Of a stretch of 64,000 bases of DNA, positions 9,505-55,064 are shown one piece after another. Source of the DNA: Amphiscolops sp. MND2022 (Eukaryota); assembly GCA_964187785.1 (NCBI GenBank), contig OZ076409.1, positions 50,656,001-50,720,000 of the forward strand, read 5' to 3'. A program made the position numbers and the translations under genes. The notes under the pieces were generated by a model. It ran no database searches. It saw only the letters and a program-made list of their open reading frames with translations, and was not told the DNA's origin. Position 1 is the first letter of the stretch; each line of letters opens with the position of its first letter.

Positions 9505-11764
9505 TGTTGACTTCCGACGTCACCATCAGACATCAGGTTTCAAAATCTTGCAAAATTTTTAGGATACTGCGAGAACTTAATTCACAATGAAAGATCCACG
9601 TACTTCAAGGTTCTTCCTAGAGTGTCAGCAAGTATATGAGAAAATAGAAATTGGGAAGCACCTAAACCAATTGGGGCCCATGGAAAAATTGTAGCACTCA
9701 TTTTACTTGTTCGCGATAATTTTTTTTGTCTCCCGAATTGATGAAATTCGCTACCTCTAAAAGGAATTGTTTGCAGGTACTCAAAAAAATTTGGTTAAGC
9801 TTTCCAATAAATTTTTCATTATCGCAATCTGCAAAATTGCAATTGCACAAATAGGAGAAACTGGCGAAAAATTTCGCAATTGTTTCTCCATCAACATACC
9901 TAACCGAAAAGGAGTGCTATAAATTTTTAACAGAAATTACATATTCAATTGGGATTACTTTATGATTTCACATGAAAATCTCCCGATTATAGGAAGCGAA
10001 TTTATGCTAGTTTGAATTCCATTCACGGAAAACTTTTCCTTTTGATGAAAATGTGGGAAAATACGTTCTTCTCAGTCTCATGGGAGAAGGTGGGATCCCC
10101 TGTTTGAATTGCTAGAACTTTTCGTACGTTCCTTAAAGGTTCCACCAGCTTTTAGTATCATTTTCTAAATTTCTTACGGAAACTTTCATGCAAACAGTTT
10201 TCTGTTCTGTTCGACTTTAAAGAAGCTGCTTGAAAGAAGCATCCTAAATTTGGCGGCACATTTAAGCCTTGAAGTTTTGCAAAATCCAATAAAAAGCGGT
10301 TCCATTTTTGAATGCATCTAAGATTCCATCATTTTCACCACTATTTTAATGCGAAATGACTTCATTCATAAAGTAAACAGCAAACAGCGTCATCTTGAGC
10401 AAGCTAATTGAGAAGCGGTAATCGCATCAGATGAAGTAGTTAAGAAATCAAAGCGGGAATACAACATGATTGTGGCCGTAACGAAGAGGGAAATATTTTC
10501 ATTTCACTTTGAATACTGGAAATTGCCGTGTAATTCTGTTCAAGATTTAACCTAAAGATTTAACACCAGAAGCTAACTGATTGTTTTAGATTCTATAGAA
10601 AATTACCCTGCATGCAGTCAGCAGCAAGTACAAAGCAAAGTTCTAAAGTTCTAGCAGTCTCGACTAGGGAAGATAATTACTATAAAAACAACTTTTTCAG
10701 ATACCAATAGTTTGTTCCAGTCGGAAAATTTTAGAGTAATCAATCATTTCTCACTACATTATTAGAAAAACACAATTCTATGTTGTTCGCAAAGGCAAAG
10801 GCTTGCGGTTTTTGGGGTGATGGAATGACAGTGAAAGTAATCAATTCTCCATTTGACTTTTCAATAATTAGCCCTTATTTTACTTTGATATCAAATTTTT
10901 TATTCCGAGAAAGTAACTAACTCTCACCAATAATATGTTAGGAGCAAGCTGCAAACAAATCTGATTTCAAACGTTAGATAGTTCACAAACACTGGATGCT
11001 GAATCTATAATGTGTCAATTCTTGTTCATTCTCACACGTTTTTCCTGACTTTAGACTTTAGTTGAAATTGCTCCAATACTTTGCATGAACTTTATTGTTG
11101 CCTACTACTTTTAGTAGGGTTTTCTTAAACTGTTTCGGAAAATTTTGGGTGAAAAAATGTCCCTGTTGTATTCAACTTTTACCAAGCTGTTTGAAAGAGT
11201 CATCTCTTTATCGCGCCAATTTTAAGCATTTGCAGTTTTGCAGGCTTCACTAAGAAACAGTTCTAATTTTAAATGCAACTGTTGTTACCCATTTTATCGC
11301 CATTTTAATTATTATCAGGCGCGTATCCCAAAAATATGCATGCAATGTTTTCGTGCCAATCCACAACTAGTCAGCTTTTTAAAATGCTTAGTCCACTTAG
11401 TTACCAGAAAGACAAAATTGAGACCAGATGCGATTGAAAAATTGAGTAAATCATCGTTATTGCAACCCAAATTGACAGAAGAGATGTCATAAATATAAAT
11501 TTCTATCTCGAGGTAAATTGATTTGAAGCAGAATTGAGCTTAGATAAAAGTTATGACAACCTTATTTTTTAGGCTGGGTAGGTATAAATAAACTGGGAAC
11601 GACATGAATTGGCCGTGCCCAAGGCTCAAAATTATCTAACAGGGATATGGTTTGAAGGGGGATGAACATATTATGGGGGGATGAAAATCATAACTTGTGG
11701 TTCGTTTTTTTCCAAATTCAGCCAAATCTCCACTTTATTACACCATTTAATAAGTAAATTCTAG

Positions 11765-13421: not shown

Positions 13422-14021
13422 TCAACAAAAGCACGTGTCATGAACGTTATGATTAGATATTCCACCCCTTTGGCGTACATCATGTCGTTCATTCCTGCAG
13501 TTAGTCCTAGCGTTCGAGTTGCGCTGTTCTTCGGCATCCGTTTCCGGTCTCTCAGCCGGGACTTCCCATCCTCTTCTAGTCTCATGGACCGATCCGGCCA
13601 TCATGGCGTTTTGAATTTGAGGCAACACTTGACTATTTATAGCCTCATTGATGGCCCTTTGGATCTGTGAACTAACATTATTAAGCATATCGTCCATCTC
13701 TCTCGAGATCCTAGAATTTAATTCGCTTGACAACCTGTTTATCTCTGCAAGTGAGTTTGCTTCAGCTGAGTTTTGGCCCAAGTCGGCGCTTGTCCTGGGT
13801 TCATTGTTCCTACAATTAGAATATAGGCTTTCGTCCTCATTCTCTTGGTTGTCGCTTACAACACTATTCCTCCTCCTAGCTGAATTACTATCTAAACTCC
13901 TTTCTCTTTCAATCCCGTTAAAGTGATTGTTTCCTAGCATTATATCTAGGTTTTCAATATCCGAAAGGATCTCTAATCCTCTAGACTTTCTAGTCTTCTT
14001 CTGCTTTCTCGTTGTAGGCAT
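13422..14021 (-). CDS. Copy of Gag N-terminal 195 aa carried in the 3' LTR, ending in flanking DNA
   Basis: Identical to residues 1-195 of ORF 26806..28515, followed by TCFC* from host flank. Expression unknown. Confidence 0.5.
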   Translation of the reverse strand: MPTTRKQKKTRKSRGLEILSDIENLDIMLGNNHFNGIERERSLDSNSARRRNSVVSDNQENEDESLYSNCRNNEPRTSADLGQNSAEANSLAEINRLSSELNSRISREMDDMLNNVSSQIQRAINEAINSQVLPQIQNAMMAGSVHETRRGWEVPAERPETDAEEQRNSNARTNCRNERHDVRQRGGISNHNVHDTCFC

Positions 14022-15360
14022 TGAGACTAAACCGGGTTGAAGAATTAAATTAATCAGGTCCGGAAAACAGTAATTGTTAACAGATTGTTATCAAGTTGAT
14101 TGTGAGGAGCTTTTCGAAATTGTGTCTACTCAAAGGAAGTAGCTCCTATATATACTCCCTTGGGTGGGAAAAGCATGGTAGTAACTTTAAAAAATGTCAT
14201 AACTACATTCCTAAAGCACCTGATCAGATCATATACATTCAAACATCAAAGTGCCGCTGAATTGTAGTAGCAAGGTCACGCGGCCGTTTAAATTCCTGCT
14301 TTGATAGGATTGAGAGGCATTCAAATAGCACGCGTTACTTCAAACAACATCTACTATAATATTTGCACTGCTGGTATTTGGGGAATGTCAGCTATCCCGT
14401 GCCGGCACGTGCCCCAGTAGTAAGCTAAACAAACTTACATCAAATAACGTTACATGCATAATACATCTACAAATTGCATGTGTTAATTGACAAATGAGAC
14501 CGGACTGGTCTTTCGGGCAAGTATTTGAAGCACCAACACACAACTGGTGTTAATCATATCAACCGATCTGGAGGACTACATAACTGTTTGTAACACACTC
14601 ATTACTGTACATGTCATTTAGAATGCACAAAACAATCATATTGACCATCTGAGTAATAAATTGAATGGGTGGCCTAAATCGGCCATTATCCGGATAGGTA
14701 TAGCATCAGGGGAGGGAAATTAGGCAAATGGCCTTATTTGGCTAAGCATCAGGGGAAATGAAACAAAACACTAATTATCCAACGTGATCATTTAACAAAC
14801 ACAGAAACGTAATTAAGCTACTTATTAATACAGTATAGCAGCGTCCACATCATTATCTTTTCATTAGCAACTTATGGCCGAAACCGGCCGTTTGACTCAA
14901 GTCCCGTTTAACAAAGGCGGAATTCAGTCATGTGGCCTTAACCGGCCATTAATTAAATACAGCACAAGTATTGTTCAAATGGATGAATGTGATTGGTTAG
15001 CACGACTGCAGTAAGTTATATCGCCGAGAAGGGACGTTTTCGCACTTGAACACGTTTCCTTCTCGCGATTAACTTGCTCTCTTATTGTTTGCTATAGCAT
15101 CAATACAACTTCGCAATTTAATTCAGCTATTACAACAACGAACTGATTTGGCTAATCCCAAATCGTAATATTAACAGACTAATTTGAACATCCAATATAA
15201 GTGATCAAATAAAATAAATACAAACAAAATACATGATGTAAACGGTTTCTAAAGTTTTAGCAGTTTTATTCTTAAAAAGTTGGCAGTGTTCCGGGTATGA
15301 CTTCTTGGTTGTTGCTTGTTGTCGTAATCATAGTGCCGTCACAGGCGGCAGCCTGCGACA
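13436..15360 (-). repeat. 3' LTR (1925 bp)
   Basis: Direct repeat of 27930..29854. No differences seen in spot checks, and ORF-track translations in the two copies match. Confidence 0.96.
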
Positions 15361-16057
15361 CTGCGGGTGTAAGGAAAAGAAACGAACCTGCATTCAACCC
15401 GTTTTCGTAGGCTTCCCTTCTCAGCTTTGTTATGAATTCTGGCTCATCTCTCGGTGTAGATCTGTCCATGTACCAATCCACTCGCTGTTTCTTGATCGCA
15501 TCTACTGAGCGGCCACAGACCATACATCCGGTATAACGTGTTTCGCTCACATTCTCGTACGGCTTCGTGTTTTGAATGTGATATGACGCCCTGAATGCAG
15601 AGTCAGCTACTACTAGCGGGGTATCCATAGACGGTCCTCTCTCGTGAGGGGGCGGTGATAGAGGTGACTCCACGACAGGAAGTAGAGTTTTGCAGAGCTC
15701 TATCCGAGATTTCCCTATCTTCCTCGGGGGAGCATAACACATTTCTCTATCAAAATATTTGTGATCCAACTTCGGGGTCACGCCCATCTGCGTCTGCCTG
15801 GAACTTGGGCCAGCTTCTGTATCTTCTTCTTCTTCTTCGGGTAATTCTACAGTCATAATGCGGCCCCCTATTAGCATGGGGCTGGATATTACCTCTTTCT
15901 CGATCCTGGCCACCAGTTGTTCCGTATCAGTGGAATAGTCGGTTTCCCAATCCGAGGCTTCGCTCTCACTACTAGATATGTAGATGACAGATTCGTTAGA
16001 TTCGTCAGAATCATAATCCATGTCGAATAATTTCCTTGCCAGGTTGTACTTGCTCAT
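15272..16057 (-). CDS. Accessory sense ORF of unknown function (261 aa) overlapping the 3' LTR
   Basis: ATG start, acidic/Ser-rich N-terminus, CMVC motif. Last 89 nt lie in the LTR. AATAAA directly after the stop (15265..15270). C-terminal peptide conserved in the diverged LTR at 63368. Confidence 0.75.
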   Translation of the reverse strand: MSKYNLARKLFDMDYDSDESNESVIYISSSESEASDWETDYSTDTEQLVARIEKEVISSPMLIGGRIMTVELPEEEEEDTEAGPSSRQTQMGVTPKLDHKYFDREMCYAPPRKIGKSRIELCKTLLPVVESPLSPPPHERGPSMDTPLVVADSAFRASYHIQNTKPYENVSETRYTGCMVCGRSVDAIKKQRVDWYMDRSTPRDEPEFITKLRREAYENGLNAGSFLFLTPAVSQAAACDGTMITTTSNNQEVIPGTLPTF

Positions 16058-17133
16058 AATGAGTTTTTTAGCTATTTTGAAGCTTGGGGAGGCAACTAGT
16101 CAGAATCAAAGCTTGAGAAAGAATGAATTCAACAAATTTGAGAATTTAGCCGACTCGGGCCTTTTCCCGACAATTCGTTTTTGGCGGTTGAATCTTCGGT
16201 AAATTACCCTAATCCGACATAAACATTCCTGAATGGAATTTCATAATTAGTCGGCCACCTTTGATATACCGATGTTTACCCGTCATCAACACCATCAGCT
16301 TAAGAGGTGTGAACGACGCTTGAGCTGCTAGCCTCAATTCTCTCCATCTCAAGTGGGTAATTAACGGGTCGCTTGAAGGCTATTAACGACACGCGCCGTT
16401 AAATTCTTTCAACATGGCTTCAGCCAATCAGAGTTAAGCTCTGATAAAATGAAAAATTAAGTAATAAAATGGCGAAAATAATAAATCAAAATAATTCAAA
16501 ATGGCGGAAATAACAATTTGAGTAACTATAATAACGGAAGTCCTAATTAGGCTAACAAACAAAACGGAACGAGGTAATACAGTGAAATGGGGTAAACGGC
16601 CGTAATTGGCCAATAATTCCATGAGTTGTAAATAATGAAATGATCTTAGTACATTTCGCTGGCAGACTCCATGTACAGAATAAATATGTAAATAATCCCA
16701 TAATATTAGTCTGGTAATAATCTTCAGCCACGAACTCCAATCCTTCAATTCTTTATTTTGAATTCCAATTCAATTCCTTTTATTTTAATTGCACTTTCTC
16801 TTCCATATTCATTCGATCGGTCTCCATCTACAAACTACCCTTTCTGTCTCTAATCTCTCCCGTCAGTCATCTCTTCCGAGTATCCCTGTTTCTCCCTTTA
16901 AGCTGGGTCCGGCCAATTTCCTTCGCGGCAGCAACCCGATTGGAACACTTCCCTTTTAGTCTCAGCTCAGAATGTCTTCAACTGAAGGTTGGTTTGTTTC
17001 TTTTTGAACTCAAATTTAACTTGATCAGGGCTAAATTCGTTCACAAAATGCTTCCTGTTTTCATCAATAAACGTGTGATAACACGTTTCGTTCAAATTTT
17101 CAAACACTTCCGGAAGTTTTCTAATGCGGTAAA

Positions 17134-20100
17134 ATGGATTTTTTCCAAGGAAGCTCACCGCCAAATTTCATCTCATTCTGTTTAGAAAACCAGAATAATG
17201 ACGAATCACAGATTCGAAACACCACTTCTTCAAACAATCTTGCCGAAGTTCCTCAACGCCCGCTCCCGATTACCATGCCAAGGCCTAGATCCGATCTAAT
17301 TGCTCCGTCTTCTCTACCTTCATCCAACATCCTTGCTATGTCAACAGCAGCGGTAACAGGAGGAGCCCAAGATACAGCCACTCCCTCTCCTTTCAGTGTC
17401 GACAGTGATTTTGATGTCACGGCGTACGCTGATGAGAAAGTTTTGCTTCTCGAACGGGCCCAGGGACAGGAAGAGAGACAAATTGCCAAAAGTTCTGAAC
17501 TCGGGGAACAGGAGGTTGAAGAGAGTGTCCCAGAAGGTTCACTCACGGTTGGGAACGAAATCCGATCTTCTACCTTGCCCTTCCAAACAAGCACTCCAAC
17601 CAAAGATTTGCCCAGTGAGTCTGCAAGGCTGGATTTATCGCAACTAGAAGCCGGTCTCACAGTTGCTCCATCTACCCAGACGGAATTGCCAGAATTGTTG
17701 ACAACTCGCGGAAATACTACCAACATGTCAGCAGCATCATTCCTCCACCATGAGACTGACGAAAGTTCGTCTATATGTGATGCCCCCAAATTGCCGACTG
17801 GAGTCGCGGACATAGTATATTTAGACGACATAACAGGGACTGAGGAAGCTGGTGACACATCCAGTCAGGCAAGTGGACCAGCTCTATACAGTTTCCAACC
17901 AGTGGGAGGCGCAGCAGAAACTGCAGGGGAGTCATCAGTTGACACTCCTATTCCTCATCCGGATAACTTGCGTCCGTCAACATCAACGTCTGCAGAGCAA
18001 GGTTCTGGCATCAGGGAGCTCTCTGGTCGCAGCCGGGCTATTTTAAAACAATACTTCGATCAGGATGCTACTACCATCAACTTCCCCCTTGGCCATAGAA
18101 CGGTGGCTTTCACTGAGCCGCAAGTGTACCATCTTTTGAGGGTCCTTACAGATGAAACCTTGAAGATGTCTTTCACTGCCATGGAACAGATGGTGATCGG
18201 GGCAGTTCGTGGAGCGCCGGTTACTTCCAGTTCTCGAACTGGTCATTTCCGAAACAGGCCAAGAGCCCAAACTCCCGGACCTGGACTTCATAGTGATTCC
18301 GAGGGCAGTTCGCATTCTGAAAATTTCCCTGAGTCAGGAACTGATACGTCTGCCGGGTCAAGTTCGGAACAAGAAGATAGAGGACTGGACTCTTCCAACA
18401 ACACTGATAGCTCTGGGGAGATGGCTCTAATTTCACAGGCTTTTAAGGAGCCTTTCAGACCTGCTTCAACTTCCTGTGGGACTACTCAAGATGATCCCCC
18501 TCAAGCAGGTTTCGAATCAGCAGATCAGTCTAGTCTTGATGCTACCCTTTCCGAGTTACGAACTCAAACTTCTCCTGCTCCGCCCTTAGCTTCGAGTTCG
18601 GGTAAAGCGCCAAAACGTAAGCAACGGAAACAGACTCGAGGTGTCCCTATGAAAGAGGAGTTCTTCTCTAAAATCGGATGGACACGCTCGTTCATTTCTG
18701 GACCAGCAGACCCGCTCCATAATCCTTATATGGTATGGTGCCATATATGTAAAAAGAATCTTTCTGTGAAGACGAAGGGCACTTTGGAAATTCTGCGGCA
18801 CCACAGGACGGAGAAGCACCCCCGAAAAGATCAAAGATGGCGTTACGAGCACCTCAAGAGTGTTCACCCCGTGTCCGGAAAGGTGCAACATCGAGTGAGA
18901 GGCCGCAATGGGAAGATTCTCTCAGAGATTGAGTTGGCCAAGGAGATGCGCCACTTTATGCACGTTGAGTTGGTGGACATCGGAGAACGTTTCCCTTTCT
19001 ATGACGATTTCATAAAAGGAACAACCACCACACTCGTCACCCCTGAATCAAGAGCTAAGACACAGATCCAACTTATTGGGAACTTCATACAGCAGCACGG
19101 GGATATTGGAATGCTCCGCAAATTGTGGTCCCAAATAGGCTCTTTGACTAACTATCAGTCCAGCTACTGTGACTTCGATTGGGGTGAAGAAAGAATTTCG
19201 GTAAGTTCTCTATTGGGTTTGTACACTGCTTGTGGTAGGCCAAAACCTTCCAAACATTTCGTAATTCTCCTTTTCCTTTTCAGGCCATCTTCCAGCACAT
19301 CTTCAATTGTGCAATGAACGATTTAGCAAACCAGATTGCTACCACACAGCACTTTGCCATCGAATTTGAGGATCAGGGTGTGAACAGACTCATGTCTGTC
19401 AAATTCTGGAAAGACAACACCCTCTGCCGAGTCTACGTGTGTCGAAGTGGGCTTCCTTCCTCTGACCTTACTGGAGAGTTGGGGTCCCTCTCTCGACTCC
19501 TCTCAGTAGTATCCACTAAAGCCGATATAGTCGCCTGTTCCGGATGTCCTGTCGAGCTGATTCAGACTATCGACAACAATGTTTTCTTCCCCCGGGCTGT
19601 CCAGAGTTGCTTTCGCTTCGAGCATCTGCAGCTCCAGAAGATGATGCACAAGCCCACTTTCAGTGTGTTTGGCAGAATAGACTTCTTCTCTGTTCTGAAG
19701 TGCCTCGTAGTTTCACTTGGAGCAGCTTCCAGTGAGGATTGGGCCCTGCAATCCCCTGAACTGGCACGAGTTAGTATATTAAGTTCAAACATGAAGCGTA
19801 AAGGGTTAGGGGGTAGGTTCGGGCAAAAGACAATTCGGGTTCATTTAGGCTATCGATACCTGCAAACTGGACTTGCCGAGTTTACCCAACCTCTGTCGGG
19901 AACTTGTAAAACATTGGAAGGCGATCCGGCAGTACCTGACGTCCCATACTCCACACCAGGGAATGCAGGGGGTCCACAATCAAGTGCAGAGCTTCGAGTG
20001 GTCTCTCATCTGCGACTCCTTCTTCACCGTCAAGTTGGAGTTCTTCCAACGCATAATCAGTGATTGTGAGTATACCGCTACATATCCATATTGGTACTAT

Positions 20101-21378
20101 AAGACATTATCAGAATGATCCTTGATCCTTGATTCCTCGGGCCACTAGCGCAGTAGGCATATCGGTATGGGTTTATGTAGACGTTTTGTTCTTTTCATGG
20201 TCTTGTCCTTTGTATTTCCAGATGTCGCCAGTTTCGTTGTCAATCTGTTGGGCCGACGAGATGCAACATTTTTCCTCTGTGGAGAAGTCTGCCGATTCAT
20301 CTCCAAGTTATGTGCCAGATGTTACTTGCCGGAAACCATCCCTCTCGAGAATTCGTGGTTCCTGCTCCTCAATTTCAACGTGAGCGACGGGAAGTTCATC
20401 AGCGAGGAGGAGTTCCTTGTCCGACACCGGCTGACAACTCGGATAGCTACTGCCAGCAAACAGTGTGCCGATGTTGTCCATTTGAACAAGAAATCGGAGA
20501 AAGCCGCCATTGAGAAGACAGCTGCAGAGACAACCAGCAGTTTCGTCAAAGAAGGACTGCAGTTTATTCAGTACTTGGTCAAGCAGGTCCTCAACCAAGC
20601 CGGTCTGAGCTCCGAGGTGATCAAGGGGTTGGCCGCCTTTGATCCTTCCGTCCTCTTCAAGAGGCCGAGTGAGGTCGGACTTCGTCATTTCGAGGTATTG
20701 TACTCGACCTTCCAGCTTCGCTCCTGGGTCTCCGGTGAGAATGAGAACATCTGTCGAGATGAGTATTTGGCTTTGTTAGATCACCTGCGAGTCAATTATC
20801 CTCCAGATTTCGATTTCAATGAAAATTCCCCCGACCTGATAGACTTTCTGATGCAACTCGAGTTTTTTCAAACTCATGAGCACATTTTCCATCTTTTCAA
20901 GCTGTGCTGCTTGTGTTTGACAGAACGAAGTCTCCAATATCCCCCAGTATCTTTCGGGAGTGTTAACACTTCTGGACACCGAGGCCGTTTTGCTGACCTT
21001 ATAGAGCCCTGTCAGAGTTACCTTTCTTGCGTGCCTGACTCCATTCTACATTGTTGTTCTGACGCTAATTTAGAAAAGCTTTCAGCCCTCAGTTCTTCCT
21101 TCGAGCGTTCCGCTTTCTCCCCCGACTATGATCCATGGACCTTTGTGGATGAGTTCGGGAGGTCCAAAATTTACAAGAGCCTTCTTGCCTCCTATAAGGT
21201 CGTCACTGCTGTTTCTCCCCCTCGGGCTGTTCATCTGGCGACAGGAATTGCCTCCTCCGTGCCGGACGATTCTGCCGTAAAGGTGCCCTCCAAGAAGCAA
21301 AGGAAGCGAGCAGGTAGCAGCAGTTCTACAATTTCGTCCACTTCCAAGAAGGCTGTTCAAGGGTCCTCTAAAGACTAA
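17134..21378 (+). CDS. Antisense four-exon accessory gene (~1308 aa): disordered N-terminus, BED/hAT-type zinc finger, decayed hAT-transposase-like region
   Basis: Exons 17134..19200, 19284..19769, 19849..20065, 20222..21378. Introns GTAAGT..TTTTCAG, GTTAGT..CATTTAG and GTGAGT..TTTCCAG (phases 0, 0, 1) join four ORFs into one 3927-nt frame. Motif VWCHICKKNLSVKTKGTLEILRHHRTEKH. Confidence 0.85.
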
Positions 21379-21610
21379 ATGTACATATGTATTTATGTAC
21401 TTTCAGACTGTAAACTTTGTTCATTTCTCTGTTTCATATTTATTTTCATTTTGTTCTCTGTTGTCTTGATTTTCTGATCCCGTATTTATTTCCTTGTAAG
21501 GGATCATTCAAATGTCCCATTATTTATTCAAGAAATACTGCTGCATGGGACCGAAAAGATAAAAAGAATGAAAAGAAGAGAATTCCCATTTTCGGGAAGA
21601 AATTCAATTC

Positions 21611-24600
21611 TTAGTATCTGAAGTCTTCTGAGTAGTTTGGATTTGGATTAGGCCTGAGATTATATTTCCCTCCTCTAGGGCTCAGACTTTCATTTCTAGC
21701 ATCTTTTTCAGATATTTCGGGCACGATAATATAATCCCCTCTTTTCGGAGAATTTTGTGCATCGTTGTCATTCGATGAATTTCTTTCTGGAGAATTTTCA
21801 TTCCCGTTTGGTCCATTTGCCATATCCGGCAAAGATTTTTCTTGGGTTTTTGGGGAAACGGCCGGATTCGGCCAATCAAATTCTTCGTTTCTAATAGCTC
21901 CAGTAGCTTCATTTCTTTTAGTGACGTCATCATTTAAGCGGTCATTCCGGCTGTGTGCCGTATTGTCATTATTCGTTTCTCGCGTGATTATATAATCCGC
22001 GTCACTCTCGTTTGCGTCATTGTTGATTTGTTCCGTACTCGGCTGTTCGCCGTTCGGTGAGTTGGCCGGAATAGGCTCGCTGCCTCGTGTGTCTATCTGT
22101 TCACCAAAGTTTGTTTCCCACGTTATTACATACAAGTCGTCTTGCGGAATGATTATTTCGTCATCCGGCTGTAGACGCTGTTCTCGGAAATTGTCCTCAA
22201 GTGGCTGATTTGGAACAAACTTTTTGAGACGAATTCGATGCAATATCTGCGTTTTATTTGTATTAAGCCTGCGGACAATGTAATTCTCGTTAGGTAAGGT
22301 CTTCTGGACTATAAATGGTCCAACCCAACGATAATCTTTGAATGGAATTTTTGATCCTTGATGATCCGCTTTCGGCTGTAATACAAAACAGTAATCGCCC
22401 TCTTTGAGTGGGGCGGCTTTTGCTTTTCGGTCATAATACTCCTTATATTTGATATATGACTGCATGATGTTCTGCTTAGTTTTGTCAATAAGGAGTTTTG
22501 TCCGGTTTTGGATTTCTTCTGCGAATTCAGTAGTCGGATGGATTTGCTCGTTTGGATTTGTTCCAAGCTTATGATCCAAGATGTTGTATGGGATTCTTCC
22601 ATGGAACACTCTTGTCGGTTCACATCCGATACTGGCATGGTAACTAGTATTGTGATTCAGAACTGCTAATGGCAAATATTTGTGCCATTGTCGGCGATAT
22701 TCTCCACATGCCATTTTCAAGTTTGTTTTCAATGAGGCATGTGTGCGCTCCAATTTCCCGATAGTTTGCGGGTGCTTTGTCGTTGCACATTTTAGGGTGA
22801 TTCCTAAAATTTGGGTAATTTCTGCAATAATCGTGGAAGTGAAGGCAGTTCCTTTGTCTGTAATGAGCGTTGTCGGTAAGTAGGAATGTTTGGTCATAAT
22901 GTCAATGAGTGCTTTGGCTACATTGATCGCTGATGCGTCCGTGAGAGGGTAAGCGAATAAATATCTAGAGAAAACATCAATTGCCGTTAGGACATTTTCA
23001 TACCCTCCGCTTGGGGGAAGATTCGGCAATAGGTCAATTTGCATGGCGTCTTCAGGTCCAAGGTCCCATTCGGGCAAATTTAGTAGTTCAGGCGTGATCG
23101 TTGCATTAGGGACTCTTTTGTCTCTGGCGCATTGCTCACACCCTTCTACCCACTTTTTGACATGTTTTGCCATGTTGGGATAATAATACCTTTGTCTGAT
23201 TTCCTGCAACATTTTTGAAATCCCGGGATGTTTATGCGCTGTCCCGTGAAGGGAGTGGAGCAGTTCCCGAAGTAGGTGTTGCGGGAGCAAAATTTGATGG
23301 TATTTAACATTCCCTGTTTCATCAAAATATTGCCGTGTTAGGATTTCGTCCTTTAGTACAATTCGTTCCAGATTATTTGCATAGTGTCTATATCGAGCGT
23401 CCTGTTGCAGTATGTTTTCTGAGTAGTCTTCGTGAAGGAGTTTTGCCTTCAATTGTTGTAATACTGCATCCTTGGATTGCTCGATAATTATCTGGTTTGT
23501 TTTCCTCAATCGGTCTTGTATTTCAGGTTGTTGTTTGGTTAAGTTGGTGGAAAGAGTTTGTATTGTAACTGTAGGGTCTTCGATTACAGGATTGTTCCTG
23601 ATTGCTTCTTTCCTCGCCCAATATTGTTCTTCGGTCTCGTCGTCGTCATTGGTGTAGAAGATTTGTTCTTCCTGTGAGACTCCTGCTGATTGGACGTTTA
23701 TTTCTATTGGTAGCGTTTGTACATCTTCTCGGATTTTCATTACTAATTTGTCCTTTGGGTCTGCTTCCAGTCGGGACAAGTAATCCGCTGCCGTATTCTG
23801 TGCTCCTGGGATGTGTGCAATGACAAAATTGAACTGAATTACATAGTCGCATGCGTTCCACAGAGCTGGGGGTACGATTTTCGTCTGAAAGAATCTCGTT
23901 ACGGCTTTGTTGTCGGTTAGAATTATGACCGGTTTCGGTGCTCCCCAAAAAATATGCCCAAATTCTTTGAATGCGAAATAAATCGCACGAAATTCTTTTG
24001 CATAAATTGACATTTTTATCTGGGCTGGGGTGAAGGTTTTTGAACCATAAGCGACCGGTGCATATGATTTGCGGATTGACGTGAATTTCTGACTCGGATC
24101 ATCTTCAATGAGTACTGCGTATCCTGCAGCTCCAAAGCTTGCATCTGTCATGAGTGCAATCTGCTTGTTGGGAATGGGTTGTTGTAAGGCTAAGTCGCAA
24201 CATTTGTCCAGAGCTCGGTTGATTTCCTCAAATTGCTGTACCAATTCTTTTGATACTAGGACTTTTTCGTCACTTTTCAGCATCTTGTAGAATGGGGCAA
24301 GGCGTTCGGACAGTCTTGGAACGTAGTTTCGGTAGTAGTTCAGGAAACCCAAATATCTTTGCAATGCCTTTTTCGACTTTGGAAATTTGGTTTTTTCTAG
24401 AAAATTCTGAACGTTCTGTCGTTGAGGTTTGACGCCTTGTGGAGTAATCGTTCGTCCAAGGAAATCAATTTCACGGGCACCAAAATGACACTTGTGCATC
24501 GTCAATTTAAGGCCTGCTTTCTGAATGCATTTGAAAGTTGCTCTTAGGTTAGCAATGAGATGGTCGGCGTCGTTGGCGGCGATGCCGATATCGTCCACAT

Positions 24601-26815
24601 ACTGGGCGCACTGATCCGCTTTGATGACTTTGTCGAGGTATTCCCTCATGAAACTCGAGAATGCGGATAGTGACCGGCTAAGGCCTTGTGCCAAGCGTCT
24701 GTAGGCGAATGTGCGACTGGCAAAATTGAAAGCCAACATTTCGATTGAGCGTTGGTCGGCCATTGGTAGGCAGTGGTATGCCTGCGAACAGTCTAATTTG
24801 CAGAACAGTTTTTTGCCTGCCAGGTGTTGGGCAGCATCAACTAGTGTGCTGACAGGATGATTATTGTTTATATAATCATCAGAAATCAGGTTGTTGATTT
24901 TTCTCAGGTCGACTAAAAGTCGCAGTTTCCCATTTGGTTTCTTTTGGGCGAATATTGGGCTTGCATACTTTGAGAACGGTAGAGTGGTGATGATGCCATA
25001 TTTGTGTAACATGGCTAATTCGACGAGGATGTCCTCCTTTAGATTGATAGGAGCTGGGAGACTTTGACTATAGGCTGGGGAATCGTCCTTAGGCGTCAGT
25101 TTCACCTTAAATTCCTCATTCATGCCTATATCGAATCGGTGTCTTGCGAAGATATCGTGGAATTCCACTAACAGTTCCTCTATTTTCTCCTTCTCTTCAG
25201 GAGTAAGGGTGGAATCTTTCCAATCGAAGTTTTCCAAGAATTTTGCACGTGATTCTTCATCTTTGGTGGGGTCGAGTGTCTCCAGTTCCTGTAAGGCCTG
25301 TAATTCTCGGAGGATTCGTTTCTGTATCGGTGTGTGTTCCTCAGGGTTTCCAGGATTTTCTGGAGTTGGGAACCAATAGTTTTCAGAATCTTGTAGATTT
25401 TTGTTGGTCTTGATGAGACTGCTGACGTAATGGGCCGCCTGCTCTTGGTCGTTTTGCAAAAGATGCCAGGTTGATGCCGGGTCTACCGGTTTAACATGTT
25501 TCATTTGTTCTGGCGTCATGACTGAGAAATTGGCAATATGGAGTCCCTTTTTGAGTTTGTAAGGGTGGTCTGTGAAATTGTTCACTGGTATCAATATATT
25601 GCCCTCATTCAGAGTGACCAAAGCTGGGCAAAATGTGATGTCGCCTTCTTCGTGTAGGAGGTCGCTCGGTTGCAAGATTCCGGTGACAGCATTCTCAGGG
25701 TACAACAGGGAATTGGTCCTAATTAGGACTTTATCATTTGGCGGAATGGTTATCTCGGTAGGGTTGAGAATTGGTTCTAACACGTTTGAGTATTTGTGAT
25801 CAGCTGTTTTGAGCTGCATTGAGAAGAACGGGAAATTCAGTATGCCTTGTCTCATGTCCAGAACTGTGTGGTTTCGTTGAAGGAACATTAGGCCGATAAT
25901 CGGACCTGTCAGGTGTTCCATGACTATAAAAATCTCATGAAACTCAATGTCGCCAACTTCAAATTTAAGTTCTATTGTGCTTTTGGGCGTTTCCAGTTGC
26001 CCATTAGCGACCATGATTTGGAAATTCGGAGGCGGACCTTCCCGGATAACAGATTGTGGAGATAAGAGTCGAATTTTCCGGAGGTCCATTTCTGGAATTG
26101 CACTGGACAATGCTCCAGTGTCAATGAGTCCATCTATGGTCAGCTCCCCAAAGTCCATGGGGAAGTACAACATGCGCTTCTTGCATTTGAGATTGATGTT
26201 GGTCGACAAGGGTATACAGTCTGGTTCACCGTCTCTGGTGATTAGGACGTTCTGGAATTGCTTCTCGTCTAATAGTGATTGTGGTGTAGGTTCGGAGTTG
26301 TCCTCATGGGCCTCGGTCCCCAATGGGTTCGGGAACACTGGGTGGTTCGTACCATCATTCATCTGCCAGTTTTCAACTAGTGCTCTGGTCTTTTTATTGT
26401 GGGTAATTGGAGGGTTCTCATGGACTGTTCTATTGTAGTGCTCGATGTCATCTAGGACATATTGGAATTGTAGTAGTTCCTGGTTGTAGATCTCTGTGTC
26501 CCAATAGGGATCTCTGCCGTAATCTGGATCTATGTAGGTAGGATTGTAATTGTCAACCAGGGGAATGGGCCTGAATCGGCTATTGAAAGCAGATGTATAG
26601 TCAGGGTCCCATACAGGAATTGGTTTTTGGAACAAATGAGTGTTATTGTATGTAATGATGGTAGCTTTTTCCATTTGTTGCTGCCAGACAACAGAGGGAT
26701 AGCCCATCAATTGTTGATTGTATTGGTGGAAAGTTTGCGTTGGAGGGTCCGATCTGATGTATTGTCGGACAGATATCAGTTCGTTGTATTGGAGTCGTGG
26801 CGAAGTTAGTTTTTT
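21611..26815 (-). CDS. pol: Pol polyprotein: protease, dUTPase-like segment, RT, RNase H, integrase
   Basis: LIDTGA (protease); QYVDD (RT); TDAS..E..TDN..ADYLSR (RNase H); H-H-CEQC zinc finger; IDL / TDKG / LER (DDE); VGPF motif. Frame is open up to 26818 and overlaps the end of gag in the -1 frame. Confidence 0.96.
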   Translation of the reverse strand, partial: KKLTSPRLQYNELISVRQYIRSDPPTQTFHQYNQQLMGYPSVVWQQQMEKATIITYNNTHLFQKPIPVWDPDYTSAFNSRFRPIPLVDNYNPTYIDPDYGRDPYWDTEIYNQELLQFQYVLDDIEHYNRTVHENPPITHNKKTRALVENWQMNDGTNHPVFPNPLGTEAHEDNSEPTPQSLLDEKQFQNVLITRDGEPDCIPLSTNINLKCKKRMLYFPMDFGELTIDGLIDTGALSSAIPEMDLRKIRLLSPQSVIREGPPPNFQIMVANGQLETPKSTIELKFEVGDIEFHEIFIVMEHLTGPIIGLMFLQRNHTVLDMRQGILNFPFFSMQLKTADHKYSNVLEPILNPTEITIPPNDKVLIRTNSLLYPENAVTGILQPSDLLHEEGDITFCPALVTLNEGNILIPVNNFTDHPYKLKKGLHIANFSVMTPEQMKHVKPVDPASTWHLLQNDQEQAAHYVSSLIKTNKNLQDSENYWFPTPENPGNPEEHTPIQKRILRELQALQELETLDPTKDEESRAKFLENFDWKDSTLTPEEKEKIEELLVEFHDIFARHRFDIGMNEEFKVKLTPKDDSPAYSQSLPAPINLKEDILVELAMLHKYGIITTLPFSKYASPIFAQKKPNGKLRLLVDLRKINNLISDDYINNNHPVSTLVDAAQHLAGKKLFCKLDCSQAYHCLPMADQRSIEMLAFNFASRTFAYRRLAQGLSRSLSAFSSFMREYLDKVIKADQCAQYVDDIGIAANDADHLIANLRATFKCIQKAGLKLTMHKCHFGAREIDFLGRTITPQGVKPQRQNVQNFLEKTKFPKSKKALQRYLGFLNYYRNYVPRLSERLAPFYKMLKSDEKVLVSKELVQQFEEINRALDKCCDLALQQPIPNKQIALMTDASFGAAGYAVLIEDDPSQKFTSIRKSYAPVAYGSKTFTPAQIKMSIYAKEFRAIYFAFKEFGHIFWGAPKPVIILTDNKAVTRFFQTKIVPPALWNACDYVIQFNFVIAHIPGAQNTAADYLSRLEADPKDKLVMKIREDVQTLPIEINVQSAGVSQEEQIFYTNDDDETEEQYWARKEAIRNNPVIEDPTVTIQTLSTNLTKQQPEIQDRLRKTNQIIIEQSKDAVLQQLKAKLLHEDYSENILQQDARYRHYANNLERIVLKDEILTRQYFDETGNVKYHQILLPQHLLRELLHSLHGTAHKHPGISKMLQEIRQRYYYPNMAKHVKKWVEGCEQCARDKRVPNATITPELLNLPEWDLGPEDAMQIDLLPNLPPSGGYENVLTAIDVFSRYLFAYPLTDASAINVAKALIDIMTKHSYLPTTLITDKGTAFTSTIIAEITQILGITLKCATTKHPQTIGKLERTHASLKTNLKMACGEYRRQWHKYLPLAVLNHNTSYHASIGCEPTRVFHGRIPYNILDHKLGTNPNEQIHPTTEFAEEIQNRTKLLIDKTKQNIMQSYIKYKEYYDRKAKAAPLKEGDYCFVLQPKADHQGSKIPFKDYRWVGPFIVQKTLPNENYIVRRLNTNKTQILHRIRLKKFVPNQPLEDNFREQRLQPDDEIIIPQDDLYVITWETNFGEQIDTRGSEPIPANSPNGEQPSTEQINNDANESDADYIITRETNNDNTAHSRNDRLNDDVTKRNEATGAIRNEEFDWPNPAVSPKTQEKSLPDMANGPNGNENSPERNSSNDNDAQNSPKRGDYIIVPEISEKDARNESLSPRGGKYNLRPNPNPNYSEDFRY

Positions 26816-28515
26816 GACTCATCGTTGGAAGATGAGGCCTGTGAGTTGGAAGATGTTGACTTATGTTGTGGTTTCTGCGCTTTTGAATTGGGTTTTCCGT
26901 CATTAGCGTCGTCTGGTCTGGTGCGTTTGGGTTTGAGATGCGCACCAGCGCCTTGCCAGCATCTTTCTTCCGGGTGGTTCTTTTTACCACAAGTGCCACA
27001 CTCCGGATACGTCTTTTTCTGAGTCTGTTTGCCTTGTTGGGCATCTTTTTCCTTTTTCTTCTTCAACTTTTCGCAGTCCTTGACCATATGGCCCTTTTCC
27101 TTGCAATAGTTGCAGGTTATATCTGACATTTGCCCAGTAGTTAGAGGAGTCTTGGATTTTGTCGAGGAGGTCATTGTGGCCATTGGTAGGTCGTCTGATT
27201 CCTCTAGTGCATTGAGTTCTAATTCTCTCTCCAAATGAGCAACTATTTCGTCATAAGAGCCATTTTCGAGTCTGGCCATGTTGACAGACCGCTTCAGTTT
27301 TGGTGGCAGCTTTGCGTAGAGCAAGCTGTCAATCATTTTCTGGGCGTGATCCCCAAATGCTTTTTCTGCCCCTTGATTTAGTTCTTCAAGGAAATCTGGT
27401 AATTTCATCGTATTGGGATCAAAGACCAGGCGGTGCCATTTATGCTTGGCAGTCGCCTGTGATTCGGGCTTGACGTATTTTCGTCTGAAGATGATTAATA
27501 CGTCTTCTAAAGTTTGTCTGTTGCTGGAGCTGATGTTTCTGAAGGTTTGAAGAGCATTCTTTCTCAATAAAGAGTGGAAGTGATTGATCTTCATTTGCTC
27601 AGTCATCTCTGGCTGCATCTTGATCATCGTATGGAACAGGTCCTCAAACAGCTCGAATTTTTCACTCTTGCCATCAAAAGTCATTGTGTTTGAGTTGACC
27701 GGGCGTATAGTGAGTTGTTGGGCTGTCGGCCTATTCTGCATCGTTGTCAAGACGTCTGCCAATCGAGTAATAGGGTCGGTTTGGGCAGCCGGAGCATTTC
27801 TCTCTTGCGCTGGGATCGTCGTGTCAAGGTTGATGTCCTCATAGGACCTGTCGAGATGGTTTCTGGATGAGACTCGTCCCGTGAGAAACTCGGGAACTTG
27901 AGGTGGAGATTCGTTGTCTCCTGTCACCATGTCATGAACGTTATGATTAGATATTCCACCCCTTTGGCGTACATCATGTCGTTCATTCCTGCAGTTAGTC
28001 CTAGCGTTCGAGTTGCGCTGTTCTTCGGCATCCGTTTCCGGTCTCTCAGCCGGGACTTCCCATCCTCTTCTAGTCTCATGGACCGATCCGGCCATCATGG
28101 CGTTTTGAATTTGAGGCAACACTTGACTATTTATAGCCTCATTGATGGCCCTTTGGATCTGTGAACTAACATTATTAAGCATATCGTCCATCTCTCTCGA
28201 GATCCTAGAATTTAATTCGCTTGACAACCTGTTTATCTCTGCAAGTGAGTTTGCTTCAGCTGAGTTTTGGCCCAAGTCGGCGCTTGTCCTGGGTTCATTG
28301 TTCCTACAATTAGAATATAGGCTTTCGTCCTCATTCTCTTGGTTGTCGCTTACAACACTATTCCTCCTCCTAGCTGAATTACTATCTAAACTCCTTTCTC
28401 TTTCAATCCCGTTAAAGTGATTGTTTCCTAGCATTATATCTAGGTTTTCAATATCCGAAAGGATCTCTAATCCTCTAGACTTTCTAGTCTTCTTCTGCTT
28501 TCTCGTTGTAGGCAT
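26806..28515 (-). CDS. gag: Gag (569 aa) with two CCHC zinc knuckles, starting inside the 5' LTR
   Basis: CNYCKEKGHMVKDC and CGTCGKKNHPEERC. Capsid-like FDGKSEKFELFEDLF region. Confidence 0.93.
   Translation of the reverse strand: MPTTRKQKKTRKSRGLEILSDIENLDIMLGNNHFNGIERERSLDSNSARRRNSVVSDNQENEDESLYSNCRNNEPRTSADLGQNSAEANSLAEINRLSSELNSRISREMDDMLNNVSSQIQRAINEAINSQVLPQIQNAMMAGSVHETRRGWEVPAERPETDAEEQRNSNARTNCRNERHDVRQRGGISNHNVHDMVTGDNESPPQVPEFLTGRVSSRNHLDRSYEDINLDTTIPAQERNAPAAQTDPITRLADVLTTMQNRPTAQQLTIRPVNSNTMTFDGKSEKFELFEDLFHTMIKMQPEMTEQMKINHFHSLLRKNALQTFRNISSSNRQTLEDVLIIFRRKYVKPESQATAKHKWHRLVFDPNTMKLPDFLEELNQGAEKAFGDHAQKMIDSLLYAKLPPKLKRSVNMARLENGSYDEIVAHLERELELNALEESDDLPMATMTSSTKSKTPLTTGQMSDITCNYCKEKGHMVKDCEKLKKKKEKDAQQGKQTQKKTYPECGTCGKKNHPEERCWQGAGAHLKPKRTRPDDANDGKPNSKAQKPQHKSTSSNSQASSSNDESKN
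26809..26815 (-). promoter_or_regulatory. -1 ribosomal frameshift slippery heptamer A_AAA_AAC
   Basis: Minus strand reads TCA AAA AAC TAA at the gag stop. The pol frame GTC AAA AAA CTA is -1 relative to gag. Confidence 0.85.
27912..27929 (-). promoter_or_regulatory. Primer-binding site, tRNA identity uncertain
   Basis: TGGTGACAGGAGACAACG directly after the LTR-terminal CA. Confidence 0.7.
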
Positions 28516-29854
28516 TGAGACTAAACCGGGTTGAAGAATTAAATTAATCAGGTCCGGAAAACAGTAATTGTTAACAGATTGTTATCAAGTTGATTGTGAG
28601 GAGCTTTTCGAAATTGTGTCTACTCAAAGGAAGTAGCTCCTATATATACTCCCTTGGGTGGGAAAAGCATGGTAGTAACTTTAAAAAATGTCATAACTAC
28701 ATTCCTAAAGCACCTGATCAGATCATATACATTCAAACATCAAAGTGCCGCTGAATTGTAGTAGCAAGGTCACGCGGCCGTTTAAATTCCTGCTTTGATA
28801 GGATTGAGAGGCATTCAAATAGCACGCGTTACTTCAAACAACATCTACTATAATATTTGCACTGCTGGTATTTGGGGAATGTCAGCTATCCCGTGCCGGC
28901 ACGTGCCCCAGTAGTAAGCTAAACAAACTTACATCAAATAACGTTACATGCATAATACATCTACAAATTGCATGTGTTAATTGACAAATGAGACCGGACT
29001 GGTCTTTCGGGCAAGTATTTGAAGCACCAACACACAACTGGTGTTAATCATATCAACCGATCTGGAGGACTACATAACTGTTTGTAACACACTCATTACT
29101 GTACATGTCATTTAGAATGCACAAAACAATCATATTGACCATCTGAGTAATAAATTGAATGGGTGGCCTAAATCGGCCATTATCCGGATAGGTATAGCAT
29201 CAGGGGAGGGAAATTAGGCAAATGGCCTTATTTGGCTAAGCATCAGGGGAAATGAAACAAAACACTAATTATCCAACGTGATCATTTAACAAACACAGAA
29301 ACGTAATTAAGCTACTTATTAATACAGTATAGCAGCGTCCACATCATTATCTTTTCATTAGCAACTTATGGCCGAAACCGGCCGTTTGACTCAAGTCCCG
29401 TTTAACAAAGGCGGAATTCAGTCATGTGGCCTTAACCGGCCATTAATTAAATACAGCACAAGTATTGTTCAAATGGATGAATGTGATTGGTTAGCACGAC
29501 TGCAGTAAGTTATATCGCCGAGAAGGGACGTTTTCGCACTTGAACACGTTTCCTTCTCGCGATTAACTTGCTCTCTTATTGTTTGCTATAGCATCAATAC
29601 AACTTCGCAATTTAATTCAGCTATTACAACAACGAACTGATTTGGCTAATCCCAAATCGTAATATTAACAGACTAATTTGAACATCCAATATAAGTGATC
29701 AAATAAAATAAATACAAACAAAATACATGATGTAAACGGTTTCTAAAGTTTTAGCAGTTTTATTCTTAAAAAGTTGGCAGTGTTCCGGGTATGACTTCTT
29801 GGTTGTTGCTTGTTGTCGTAATCATAGTGCCGTCACAGGCGGCAGCCTGCGACA
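27930..29854 (-). repeat. 5' LTR (1925 bp)
   Basis: Minus strand reads TGTCGCAGG...CATGACA and is followed by the PBS. Confidence 0.96.
28641..28648 (-). promoter_or_regulatory. Putative LTR TATA box
   Basis: GGGAG-TATATATA-GGAG about 125 nt upstream of the gag ATG. Confidence 0.5.
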
Positions 29855-30915
29855 GCACGGTACATCCGAATTTTGGACGTTGACTCCGAAGTGATTTGCA
29901 TTATACTACGGAAGAAGCTGCAGCTTCTTGCTGACGATCGAAATTATTCACGACGATCGAAATTATTACGACGATCGAAATTATTACGACACATACGAAT
30001 TTCGTCATTATATCCGAAGTAAAATTCGGATTTTATTTATGTCTGCAAATTGGGGGAGACCAAATGGTCCCCACTTTAAGATTTTTCCTCAGTATGCGAC
30101 GTTTTTCAAACGATTATTTAATCAAAGTGCCCCTTTTGATTTTTAGGAGGAATAAAGCATTATGTGAGAATAGAGGGCCACGTTCGGTTTTTTCGGCACA
30201 ATGAGACTAACCGAAGATCTAAAAAAAGTTGGTGGAAAAATTTTCCCAATTTCTGGTTTTTGAGTAAAACACTTTCGAAGTTCAAAGAGCGGCTTCATTG
30301 ATTAGTTTCCGGTCCTGTGGAACGGACGAAAGTTTTCGGAGAAATTGTGGAAATGATTTACGGTATTTTACGGCTCTGTGAGATTTTCCTTCAAAATATA
30401 TTCATTCGGTCGAAGTTAAATGTTTTCGGCTCGAAAAAAAAAACGTTTTGCGAGCTTGAAGTTCCAAATTTGGCACAATAAGATTTTTTTCTAGGAAAAA
30501 ACGTTCCGAAAAAAATAAGTACCAGAAAAAGTTTTTTTTTGTTGTTTCCATTGGAGAAAAAGTAAAGTGGTTTTCGAGTTTTATGCGTATTCCTTCGGGT
30601 ATTTTACGGCACTGAGAAAGTGATAAACTTATAACAATGGTGTCCTTTGCATTTTTAAGAAACTTGGTTTTTGGAATTTTGAGCGGGGCCCGGCTTCTTT
30701 GTTCAAATCGCAACAGAGGAATTGTATTAAATGCAATTAGCTGAAAGTCTTATCCATGAGCAAGTCCCATGGTCATTGAACAAGACGAGATGAAATACTG
30801 AACTTCGGGACGTGATAATTTGGTCGGTAGCGTGAACGCCAGTGGTATAATGGGTATGCTGATCGAGGCCCAACTGGCCACTGTTTTTGCTTGTTTTCAT
30901 TCACATTCAAGTATT

Positions 30916-35920: not shown

Positions 35921-36004
35921 TCAGTATTTTTTTAAGAGTATATTGTTCAGAACAATAGGTGCAACAACTCGTCAGAACTTCGGCAAAAATGGTTGAAATC
36001 AAAT

Positions 36005-55028: not shown

Positions 55029-55064
55029 ATTTTTAACAAAAAATTACAACGAACTTCCAACAAG

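Follow-up and report, generated by a model that had tools for sequence, protein, structure and literature searches.

A three-intron antisense gene, probably derived from a hAT transposase, in a clade of Gypsy retrotransposons

The Gypsy element and the gene on its opposite strand

The window (the whole stretch of 64,000 nucleotides that was analysed) contains a Gypsy element of 16.4 kb on the minus strand, which carries on the plus strand a gene antisense to its own. The element is bounded by two minus-strand LTRs of 1925 bp (3′ LTR, 13436..15360; 5′ LTR, 27930..29854), 100% identical to each other and with TG..CA ends, and is flanked on both sides by the 5-bp target-site duplication GCACG (13431..13435 and 29855..29859). 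The pol gene (21611..26818, minus strand) encodes PR, RT, RH and INT in this order, as judged by Pfam, and overlaps in the -1 frame, with an AAAAAAC heptamer preceding, the upstream gag gene (26806..28515, minus strand; 569 aa with a CCHC knuckle). This domain order, the direct LTRs with TG..CA ends and the short target duplication are those of Ty3/Gypsy elements. The first ~195 codons of gag lie within the 5′ LTR, and a PBS-like TGGTGACAGG with a TGG start (27920..27929, minus strand) abuts this LTR inside gag. A polypurine tract is absent, the 40 nt preceding the 3′ LTR being pyrimidine-rich on the element strand and part of an extra sense ORF (15272..16057, minus strand), which terminates within the 3′ LTR. 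Its product, of 261 aa with an acidic N-terminus and a CxxC motif, falls in a cluster of 105 members, and in Pfam it gives nothing above the cut-off.

The antisense gene sits between pol and the 3′ LTR and converges on the end of pol. An earlier note on this DNA had joined four plus-strand ORFs into a single frame through three canonical introns, with all phases matching, and recomputation returned the same arrangement: exons 17134-19200, 19284-19769, 19849-20065 and 20222-21378 add up to 3927 nt, i.e. 1308 codons with one terminal stop. Exon 1 (689 codons) encodes a low-complexity N-terminus of S, T, P and acidic residues with conserved blocks, a basic NLS-like patch and a zinc finger; exon 2 (162 codons) encodes a putative degenerate RNase-H-like core, as suggested by column conservation; exon 3 comprises 217 nt; and exon 4 (385 codons) encodes a domain that is predicted to be all-helical and is similar to the C-terminal half of hAT transposases, a basic tail and the stop. 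The introns between them are, in order, of 83 nt (19201..19283, phase 0, GTAAGT..TTTCAG), 79 nt (19770..19848, phase 0, GTTAGT..TTTAG) and 156 nt (20066..20221, phase 1, GTGAGT..TTCCAG). When every GT/AG pair within 90 nt that keeps the frame open was ranked by a simple consensus score, the proposed pair came first at each junction (1/14, 1/17 and 1/33).

Two spacers delimit the gene. The spacer on the side of the sense ORF (16058..17133) is divergent and is a likely site of an internal promoter; at both 16466 and 16498 it contains the motif AAAATGGCG, which we take to be YY1-like. That separating the converging stop codons (21379..21610) is conserved, with 91-94% identity in diverged copies, and neither AATAAA nor ATTAAA was found on its plus strand.

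Splice junctions and persistence of the introns

Comparisons at the DNA level cover copies at 90-100% identity. Among 39 copies, GT..AG ends are found in 38 for intron 1 and in 39 of 39 for both intron 2 and intron 3; conservation of these sites among diverged copies had been set beforehand as a test of the spliced model, and the counts agree with it. Shared frame-breaking indels are confined to the introns in these 39 copies (+1/+2 insertions in intron 2 of 14 copies and a +1 insertion in intron 3 of 16), and exon 3 has zero indels. The expectation that introns would be less conserved than exons holds for introns 1 (80-88%) and 3 (85-90%), as compared with 90-93% for exons, but fails for intron 2 (91-97%), which is unusually conserved, at or above the level of the exons.

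The intron 1 donor corresponds to Val in 113 of 117 homologs and the acceptor to Gln (CAG) in 35/39, and donor and acceptor signatures are still present in homologs at ~30-65% identity. Homologs that lack an intron run on from one exon to the next, with the residues expected at the junction: P0445, which lacks intron 2, is continuous at the exact junction 2, and P0051, P0102 and P0185, which lack intron 3, are continuous across junction 3. Furthermore, four homologs read in frame through intron 1 into exon 2. That the four ORFs are instead separate genes or chance frames, never spliced together, is hardly credible in the face of these joined products and read-through frames and of shared frame-breaking indels exclusive to introns. 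Sequence comparison thus supports each of the three splice junctions, and the combination of conserved, phase-compatible GT..AG ends with exons under purifying selection (see below) is that of a spliceosomal multi-exon gene. Judging from the homologs from other sources in which intron 2 or 3 is missing, the introns are not immutable; such homologs could be retroelement-borne or free, and scans of metagenome and viral contigs found no relative. P0412, from this genome, was rejected as a clean loss of intron 2, as it carries a single imprecise, frame-keeping deletion.

The earlier note had also proposed that the introns survive reverse transcription by virtue of their orientation. Indeed, on the genomic (minus) RNA their ends read CT..AC and not GT..AG, and each of 17 copies that are 99-100% identical and lie at different loci retains the three introns and a frame that stays open after splicing, which matches the prediction of retention through reverse transcription and lends support to the proposal. 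Since it is the opposite strand that is packaged as RNA, the introns would persist through replication. By analogy, a precedent for a spliced antisense gene in a retroelement may be seen in HBZ of HTLV-1, a nuclear accessory gene with a spliced antisense isoform, the intron of which persists in the provirus; HBZ differs, however, in belonging to a retrovirus, in encoding a small bZIP protein and in having its promoter in the 3′ LTR, and homology is not implied. The antisense promoter of HBZ is cited in PMC7264820. That a retro-replicated genome can retain a multi-intron gene when it is antisense would make these elements naturally suited to studying how introns are gained and lost.

Selection and fixed position

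Read in the spliced frame, all four exons show purifying selection, with dN/dS values between families in the 0.05-0.20 range: 0.17-0.19 for the first 499 codons of exon 1 and 0.05-0.09 for its last 190, 0.06-0.15 for exon 2, 0.05-0.08 for exon 3 and 0.09-0.11 for the first 330 codons of exon 4. The frame is broken in 8 of 13 diverged copies, as expected after insertion. At least 1019 loci, as opposed to 0 for the control, have the gene facing the pol end; a locus was counted when 460-520 nt separated the YDPW codons of exon 4 from the pol-end motif on the reverse strand. In the P0045 family, with 55% identity to exon 4, 10 of the 12 copies on contig C1 coincide with gene-pol loci. The antisense gene is a fixed feature of the whole Gypsy clade; on comparative grounds, it is a real, selected gene, coding in the spliced frame and holding a fixed position in many families.

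Between L018 and L021, fourfold-site divergence is 0.02 in the antisense gene and 0.24 in INT. By this comparison the gene recombines independently of the integrase, with swaps near the pol end, an incongruence that is easier to reconcile with a partner located in the 3′ module than with a fixed pairing with the integrase.

Likeness to hAT transposases and a possible regulatory role

With moderate support from models and neighbour searches, the encoded protein resembles a hAT transposase that has lost catalysis: it would combine a BED-like finger with a C-terminal half of hAT type. The finger (18736..18819, plus strand), recognized by conserved columns and Atlas neighbours, has the pattern C-x2-C...H-x4/5-H, and its W, C and H columns are invariant or at least 90% conserved in 38 sequences. 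The Atlas neighbours of this region are zf-C2H2_12 and zf-BED (0.84-0.87, all below 0.9), and it adjoins the GTF2IRD2/FAM200 zf-C2H2_12 clusters (0.86); exon 4, in a separate query, neighbours Dimer_Tnp_hAT clusters (0.93, 23/30 hits, with shared-feature counts of 158-159, below the guide value of 170), the two matches being in the correct N-to-C order. The AF2 model of exon 4 (pLDDT 89), the candidate for the insertion domain and C-terminal region of a hAT protein, was compared with Hermes (8edg), a solved hAT structure, which gave Z 5.3 and rmsd 5.2 over 160 aligned residues at rank 10, values within the noise range of helical models; residues 1-276 align to Hermes 367-609, and none of the other matches listed has a longer alignment. 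The finger region was also folded from its sequence alone, but the model (pLDDT 35) was set aside. The DDE triad and CxxH motif are not preserved: in exon 4 no Glu column reaches 80% (105 sequences), and exon 2, at the sites which we take, from hAT motifs, to be those of the first two Asp residues and CxxH, reads E-F-E, S-G and C-F-R-F, without the second Asp and the His on this placement.

Profile methods were silent on this likeness. Pfam returned no hAT or BED family for the window protein and 105 + 38 homologs, and a zinc-ribbon family matched 15 of 38 exon-1 homologs (best E 9e-4). PDB profile searches with alignments A1, A2 and A3 missed Hermes and gave only weak unrelated rows; Foldseek found nothing in the PDB at E ≤ 0.001, and none of its 257 chains reached Z ≥ 5 on structural recheck. 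A weak search for longer full-length homologs including exon 4 found none among 4417 candidates. This silence and the modest structural Z would suit a selected gene of non-hAT origin or with another role (a host-interacting factor, an element-limiting repressor or RNA binding), and the antisense transcript, being complementary to the genomic RNA, could regulate it directly. Such a reading is rather unlikely, since two independent regions indicate the same hAT subgroup in the correct order, and since selection acts at the protein level, which excludes a purely non-coding role. The gene probably derives from a hAT transposase. The likeness could also reflect a nested hAT DNA transposon, a passenger that jumped into the retrotransposon, and ordinary hAT elements do occur in this genome (150/150 scored hits above the PF05699 cut-off). 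However, no terminal inverted repeats surround the gene (the best candidate, 16 nt at 81%, is at chance level), the 8-bp duplication of an active hAT transposon is likewise lacking, its position relative to pol is constant across families 55% identical, and the low dN/dS between families is joined to catalytic motifs that are not retained, so that a nested transposon is largely refuted and very improbable.

A BED finger of the CCHH/CCHC type is found in all hAT transposases (PMC10368747). As in domesticated hAT transposases (FAM200/ZBED5/GTF2IRD2, ZBED1 and DAYSLEEPER), a BED-type finger is followed by a hAT-like body, with a likely role as a DNA-binding regulator; unlike in these, the ‘host’ would be another transposon, with thousands of candidate copies, and the protein is below Pfam detection and has ~500 extra disordered N-terminal residues. 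[quoted passage not shown] An internal promoter of its own in the spacer 16058-17133 would drive transcription, followed by splicing. The protein, having lost DDE chemistry, would retain the finger and the helical transposase scaffold, besides an N-terminus that is long, acidic and disordered and patches of basic, NLS-like sequence, a combination that makes a nuclear DNA-binding accessory factor the most likely product. It would bind specific sequences in the element's own 3′ module or LTR, and is predicted to activate the element or to shield it from silencing. This sequence of capture, internal promotion, loss of catalysis and action on the own element is marginally probable. A transposase-like scaffold with a DNA-binding-type finger and NLS-like patches could also aid integration rather than transcription, by tethering the pre-integration complex to chromatin or by nuclear entry, and a nuclear-import or accessory role has been proposed for plant antisense ORFs (PMC7264820). 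Against this, the histories of gene and integrase are incongruent, with no strict co-inheritance, and the protein would be translated from an mRNA of its own, nothing pointing to its packaging; a helper of integration appears quite unlikely. The best reading, by analogy, remains an element-encoded nuclear regulator in the manner of Retand TRP28 or HTLV-1 HBZ.

Among LTR elements, antisense accessory ORFs have been described mostly in plants. Those of the plant Tat/Retand Gypsy elements (Grande gene23, RIRE2 and Retand TRP28/PF04195), to which the earlier note had pointed, and of the fungal Boty are described in PMC7264820 and PMC11963269; the plant ORFs lie between pol and the 3′ LTR and are retained in most copies, gene23 is driven by a promoter of its own and its product is nuclear, and TRP28 is predicted to bind DNA, with a proposed regulatory role. 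The gene described here shares with them, and with Boty, a conserved antisense frame between pol and the 3′ LTR, but differs from the Tat/Retand ORFs in its three spliceosomal introns, its 1308 codons, its hAT likeness and the lack of PF04195 (no match at E ≤ 0.1 for the window protein and exon-1 homologs, or at 0.05 for the 105 homologs). The main text of PMC11963269 speaks of ORFs and does not contain the word ‘intron’; PMC7264820 calls the origin of the plant ORFs unknown, with no likeness to other transposons, and treats the origin and function of antisense accessory ORFs of LTR elements as open. Captured accessory genes also occur in Gypsy-like animal LTR elements (the ORF3s of bdelloid Vesta/Juno, and planarian Burro), but, unlike here, they are not reported as antisense or intron-bearing in the passages searched of PMC6431247 (‘antisense’, 0 occurrences) and PMC5408684 (‘intron’, 0 occurrences). 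The plant mobile domain is on record as having moved among Gypsy elements, host genes and DNA transposons (PMC5418596). The present case would resemble the Gypsy-encoded plant mobile domain and VANC in inter-element domain traffic and in accessory proteins acting on self chromatin, although those domains are unrelated and restricted to plants. A search of the literature outside subscription papers and Repbase found no multi-intron or hAT-derived antisense gene in Gypsy elements. VANC-type anti-silencing factors are accessory proteins that act on the chromatin of their own element, and the BEL-type Cer elements of C. elegans, with unusual 3′ insertions carrying antisense exons, are a possible precedent.

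Overall, it is fairly probable that a very abundant Gypsy clade domesticated a hAT transposase, which lost its catalysis and became a DNA-binding regulator encoded in antisense by a gene with introns; strong selection would have kept this gene in families that share only 30-55% identity, and in different species, while spliceosomal introns were gained or lost. If so, this would be a rare instance in which one mobile element has tamed another, a domestication across transposon classes that possibly underlies the expansion of the clade. The accessory gene would then have a traceable candidate origin, a DNA transposase, and a testable predicted activity, sequence-specific DNA binding, with more than a thousand natural variants. 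Strong selection (dN/dS ~0.1) on a trans-acting product is a puzzle in a family of thousands, where such a product should be open to cheating, and counts against the regulator reading. On the practical side, the exons may be miscalled in annotation as thousands of host genes or fragments.

A four-exon coding frame antisense to gag-pol

The gene lies on the plus strand at 17134..21378 (exons 17134-19200, 19284-19769, 19849-20065 and 20222-21378), antisense to the gag-pol region of a Gypsy element. The introns proposed in the earlier note (19201-19283, 19770-19848 and 20066-20221) proved exact. All have GT..AG ends, their phases are 0, 0 and 1, and once they are taken out a single frame of 1308 codons remains, as the note had claimed; it closes with one terminal stop. 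When the GT/AG pairs within 90 nt that keep the frame were ranked at each junction, the proposed pair came first (of 14, 17 and 33, respectively).

Copies in the host genome (G000; 1.07 Gb) were collected by a DNA search (40 scored of 1973 candidates, identity 85-100% in all 40) and an exon-4 protein search (121 scored of 7840, identity 80-100% in all 121), giving 39 distinct loci: 30 from the former and nine of 30 from the latter, whose remaining 21 repeat loci already counted. The GT..AG ends, on whose persistence in diverged copies the earlier note had made the gene depend, are retained at 38 of 39 loci for intron 1 (the exception has a 28-nt deletion) and at all 39 for introns 2 and 3. Common frame-breaking insertions are found in intron 2 in 14 copies and in intron 3 in 16; across the 2265 exonic bases between 18631 and 21213 there are just two indels, each single-copy, and in exon 1 the sole shared indel event, +2/-2, compensates itself. 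Of 30 full-length loci, 22 keep the spliced frame open (17/17 near-identical, 5/13 diverged). Between the window gene and seven diverged copies, dN/dS is 0.17-0.19 over the first 499 codons (covered by four copies), 0.05-0.09 over the remainder of exon 1, 0.06-0.15 in exon 2, 0.05-0.08 in exon 3, 0.09-0.11 in exon 4 and 0.12-0.20 in its tail. Other plus-strand frames give 1.1-5.9, and the low value of the minus-strand mirror frame is only a shadow. At the level of sequence, a selected four-exon coding frame travelling with the element is shown; the feature is real, its support exceeds what the earlier note could know, and a reading as separate, unspliced pieces is very improbable.

The expectation that introns would be less conserved than exons fails for intron 2, which at 91-97% conservation does not fall below the exons and exceeds those that flank it; it may harbour a signal on one strand or the other. 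This intron (19770-19848) holds a G-rich run. In P0412, a homologous protein encoded by a single copy at G000:C3:25381230-25381811, it is deleted imprecisely with the frame kept.

The public proteins used are raw ORF calls, which read on into introns. Of 119 exon-1 homologs (65-96% identity), 117 could be anchored at the intron-1 donor, where Val comes next in 113 and Val-Ser in 94, followed by divergence, usually a stop. Among 123 exon-2 homologs examined, 39 extend upstream, 35 of them with Gln (CAG) directly before the exon; at the exon-2 end, Val follows in 101 of 111 anchored homologs. P0445 lacks intron 2 (SPELTR|AISSC, the exon-3 match running from its first residue) and has no host-genome match at E <= 1e-95. 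The 50%-identity representatives include 443 relatives of exon 4; the 32 whose sequence reaches back past the exon start comprise 26 that are acceptor-compatible, two that fit nothing and four that are seemingly intron-less. P0051, P0102 and P0185 clearly run on as exon-3-like sequence plus one junction residue (Phe, Tyr and Val, respectively; Tyr in the window gene). Since the best host-genome matches of P0051 and P0185 reach only 42% and 32%, the family extends to other organisms, and its intron sets differ. These deep homologs confirm the junctions of the window gene.

The host element and the place of the gene

The LTRs (13436-15360 and 27930-29854; 1925 bp) are 100% identical on self-comparison of the window and, together with their TG..CA ends and a GCACG target duplication, indicate a recent 16,419-bp minus-strand insertion. 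Pol (21611..26818, minus strand) spans 1735 codons from stop to stop, its domains following the Gypsy order of protease, RT, RNase H and integrase; behind AAAAAAC it overlaps gag in the -1 frame. Gag, with its CCHC knuckle, includes a PBS-like site and starts ~195 codons inside the 5' LTR, so that a ~200-aa gag-start ORF is present in each 3' or solo LTR (27930-28515, 13436-14021); the gag cluster contains gag-start products of 197-215 aa. A second accessory ORF (15272-16057, minus strand, sense to the element; 261 aa, acidic N-terminus, CxxC) ends inside the 3' LTR; it has no Pfam match and belongs to a cluster of 105 members. No polypurine tract precedes the 3' LTR (15361-15400), where the element strand has a pyrimidine run ending CAG, within this ORF.

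The antisense gene and the 261-aa ORF are divergent, with 1.08 kb between the ORF and the gene's start; at its other end the gene converges on pol, stopping 232 nt short of the pol stop. The spacer between the converging stops, with the last pol codons (21379-21700), is nearly invariant, the sequence on either side varying; no canonical plus-strand poly(A) signal was found in it. Exon-4 YDPW codons joined to a reverse-strand pol-end motif 460-520 nt apart occur at no fewer than, i.e. at least, 1019 host loci (475 + 544), and the reversed control pattern at none; 10 of 12 contig-C1 matches of P0045, a protein 55% identical to exon 4, coincide with the pattern matches listed. A transposon nested in the element is scarcely credible, as the gene lacks flanking terminal inverted repeats and its place by pol is fixed at these loci; it is fixed cargo rather than a passenger. 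Fourfold-site distances for gene/integrase are 0.18/0.55 (window versus the copy L018), 0.02/0.24 (L018 versus L021) and 0.10/0.07 (L021 versus L025), and point to recombination between gene and integrase, with a switch near the pol tail.

Copies also occur in pairs 14.3-14.5 kb apart (G000:C1:79169692/79183997, C1:34576615/34590969, C9:62715298/62729846), approximately the element length minus one LTR, which suggests tandem elements sharing an LTR.

Origin and possible role of the protein

Low-complexity S/T/P/acidic sequence makes up about 500 residues of the protein; after it come a basic patch and a C-x2-C...H...H finger, in which W, C and H are invariant or almost invariant across 38 sequences. 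In Atlas, a protein-cluster neighbour search, the finger region falls beside GTF2IRD2/FAM200 zf-C2H2_12 and zf-BED clusters (0.84-0.87), which is a lead, and exon 4, queried separately, beside Dimer_Tnp_hAT and FAM200 clusters (0.92-0.93, 158-159 shared features). An exon-4 model from 105 sequences folds confidently (pLDDT 89); against 48,161 chains, the C-terminal half of Hermes gives the longest alignment among the matches listed (160 residues, rmsd 5.2, rank 10), with a Z of 5.3 that is within helical noise. Pfam, PDB profiles and Foldseek gave no support for hAT likeness. A hAT origin is probable; some other origin or role is unlikely. No Glu of exon 4 is conserved at 80%, and exon 2 has E-F-E, S-G and C-F-R-F where we take the first two Asp and the CxxH of hAT proteins to fall; thus the protein is most likely catalytically dead. 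An active hAT element was rejected as the identity of the gene. Ordinary hAT elements are present in the host genome and are possible donors.

On the packaged RNA the introns read CT..AC and, by established retro-replication, would not be spliced there, which supports the earlier proposal that they are hidden from splicing. Recombination with cDNA made from the spliced antisense mRNA could explain the rare intron-less forms. An internal promoter within 16058-17133 would drive the gene; this stretch has two motifs that we take to be YY1-like (seven in the window, 1.8 expected). The product would be nuclear and use its finger to bind the LTR or the 3' module of its own element, activating the element or countering silencing, a role we modestly favour; one as integration cofactor is rather improbable.

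HBZ of HTLV-1 is spliced, VANC is an accessory protein acting on the chromatin of its own element, and the Cer elements of C. elegans have possible antisense exons. The window gene would work like known antisense accessory genes and does not belong to the TRP28 family. Passages of PMC7264820 describe, for plants and Botrytis, antisense ORFs situated between pol and the 3' LTR, give their origin as unknown, ascribe to Grande gene23 its own promoter and a nuclear product, and urge a search for antisense spliced transcripts. A literature search found no paper on an LTR-element antisense gene that has several introns or derives from a hAT transposase, and the relevant portions of PMC11963269, PMC9289625, PMC5408684, PMC6431247, PMC5418596, PMC13547354, PMC10368747, PMC7084138, PMC13524379, PMC3315495 and PMC9911081 describe none.

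Other features of the window

A second, unrelated compact Gypsy element (54810-60640, plus strand) has 206-bp LTRs at 98.5% and a single 1757-codon gag-pol frame. Tc1/mariner transposase fragments (HTH_Tnp_Tc3_2, DDE_3) lie at 51-602 and 46480-48461, and a tandem array of a 22-nt unit (>70 copies) at ~51650-53500. A direct repeat of ~515 bp at 85% identity (31259-31770 and 35996-36512) possibly represents the LTRs of an old element, and long imperfect, MITE-like palindromes occur at 9410-9517, 30913-31083, 40703-40855 and 42448-42654.
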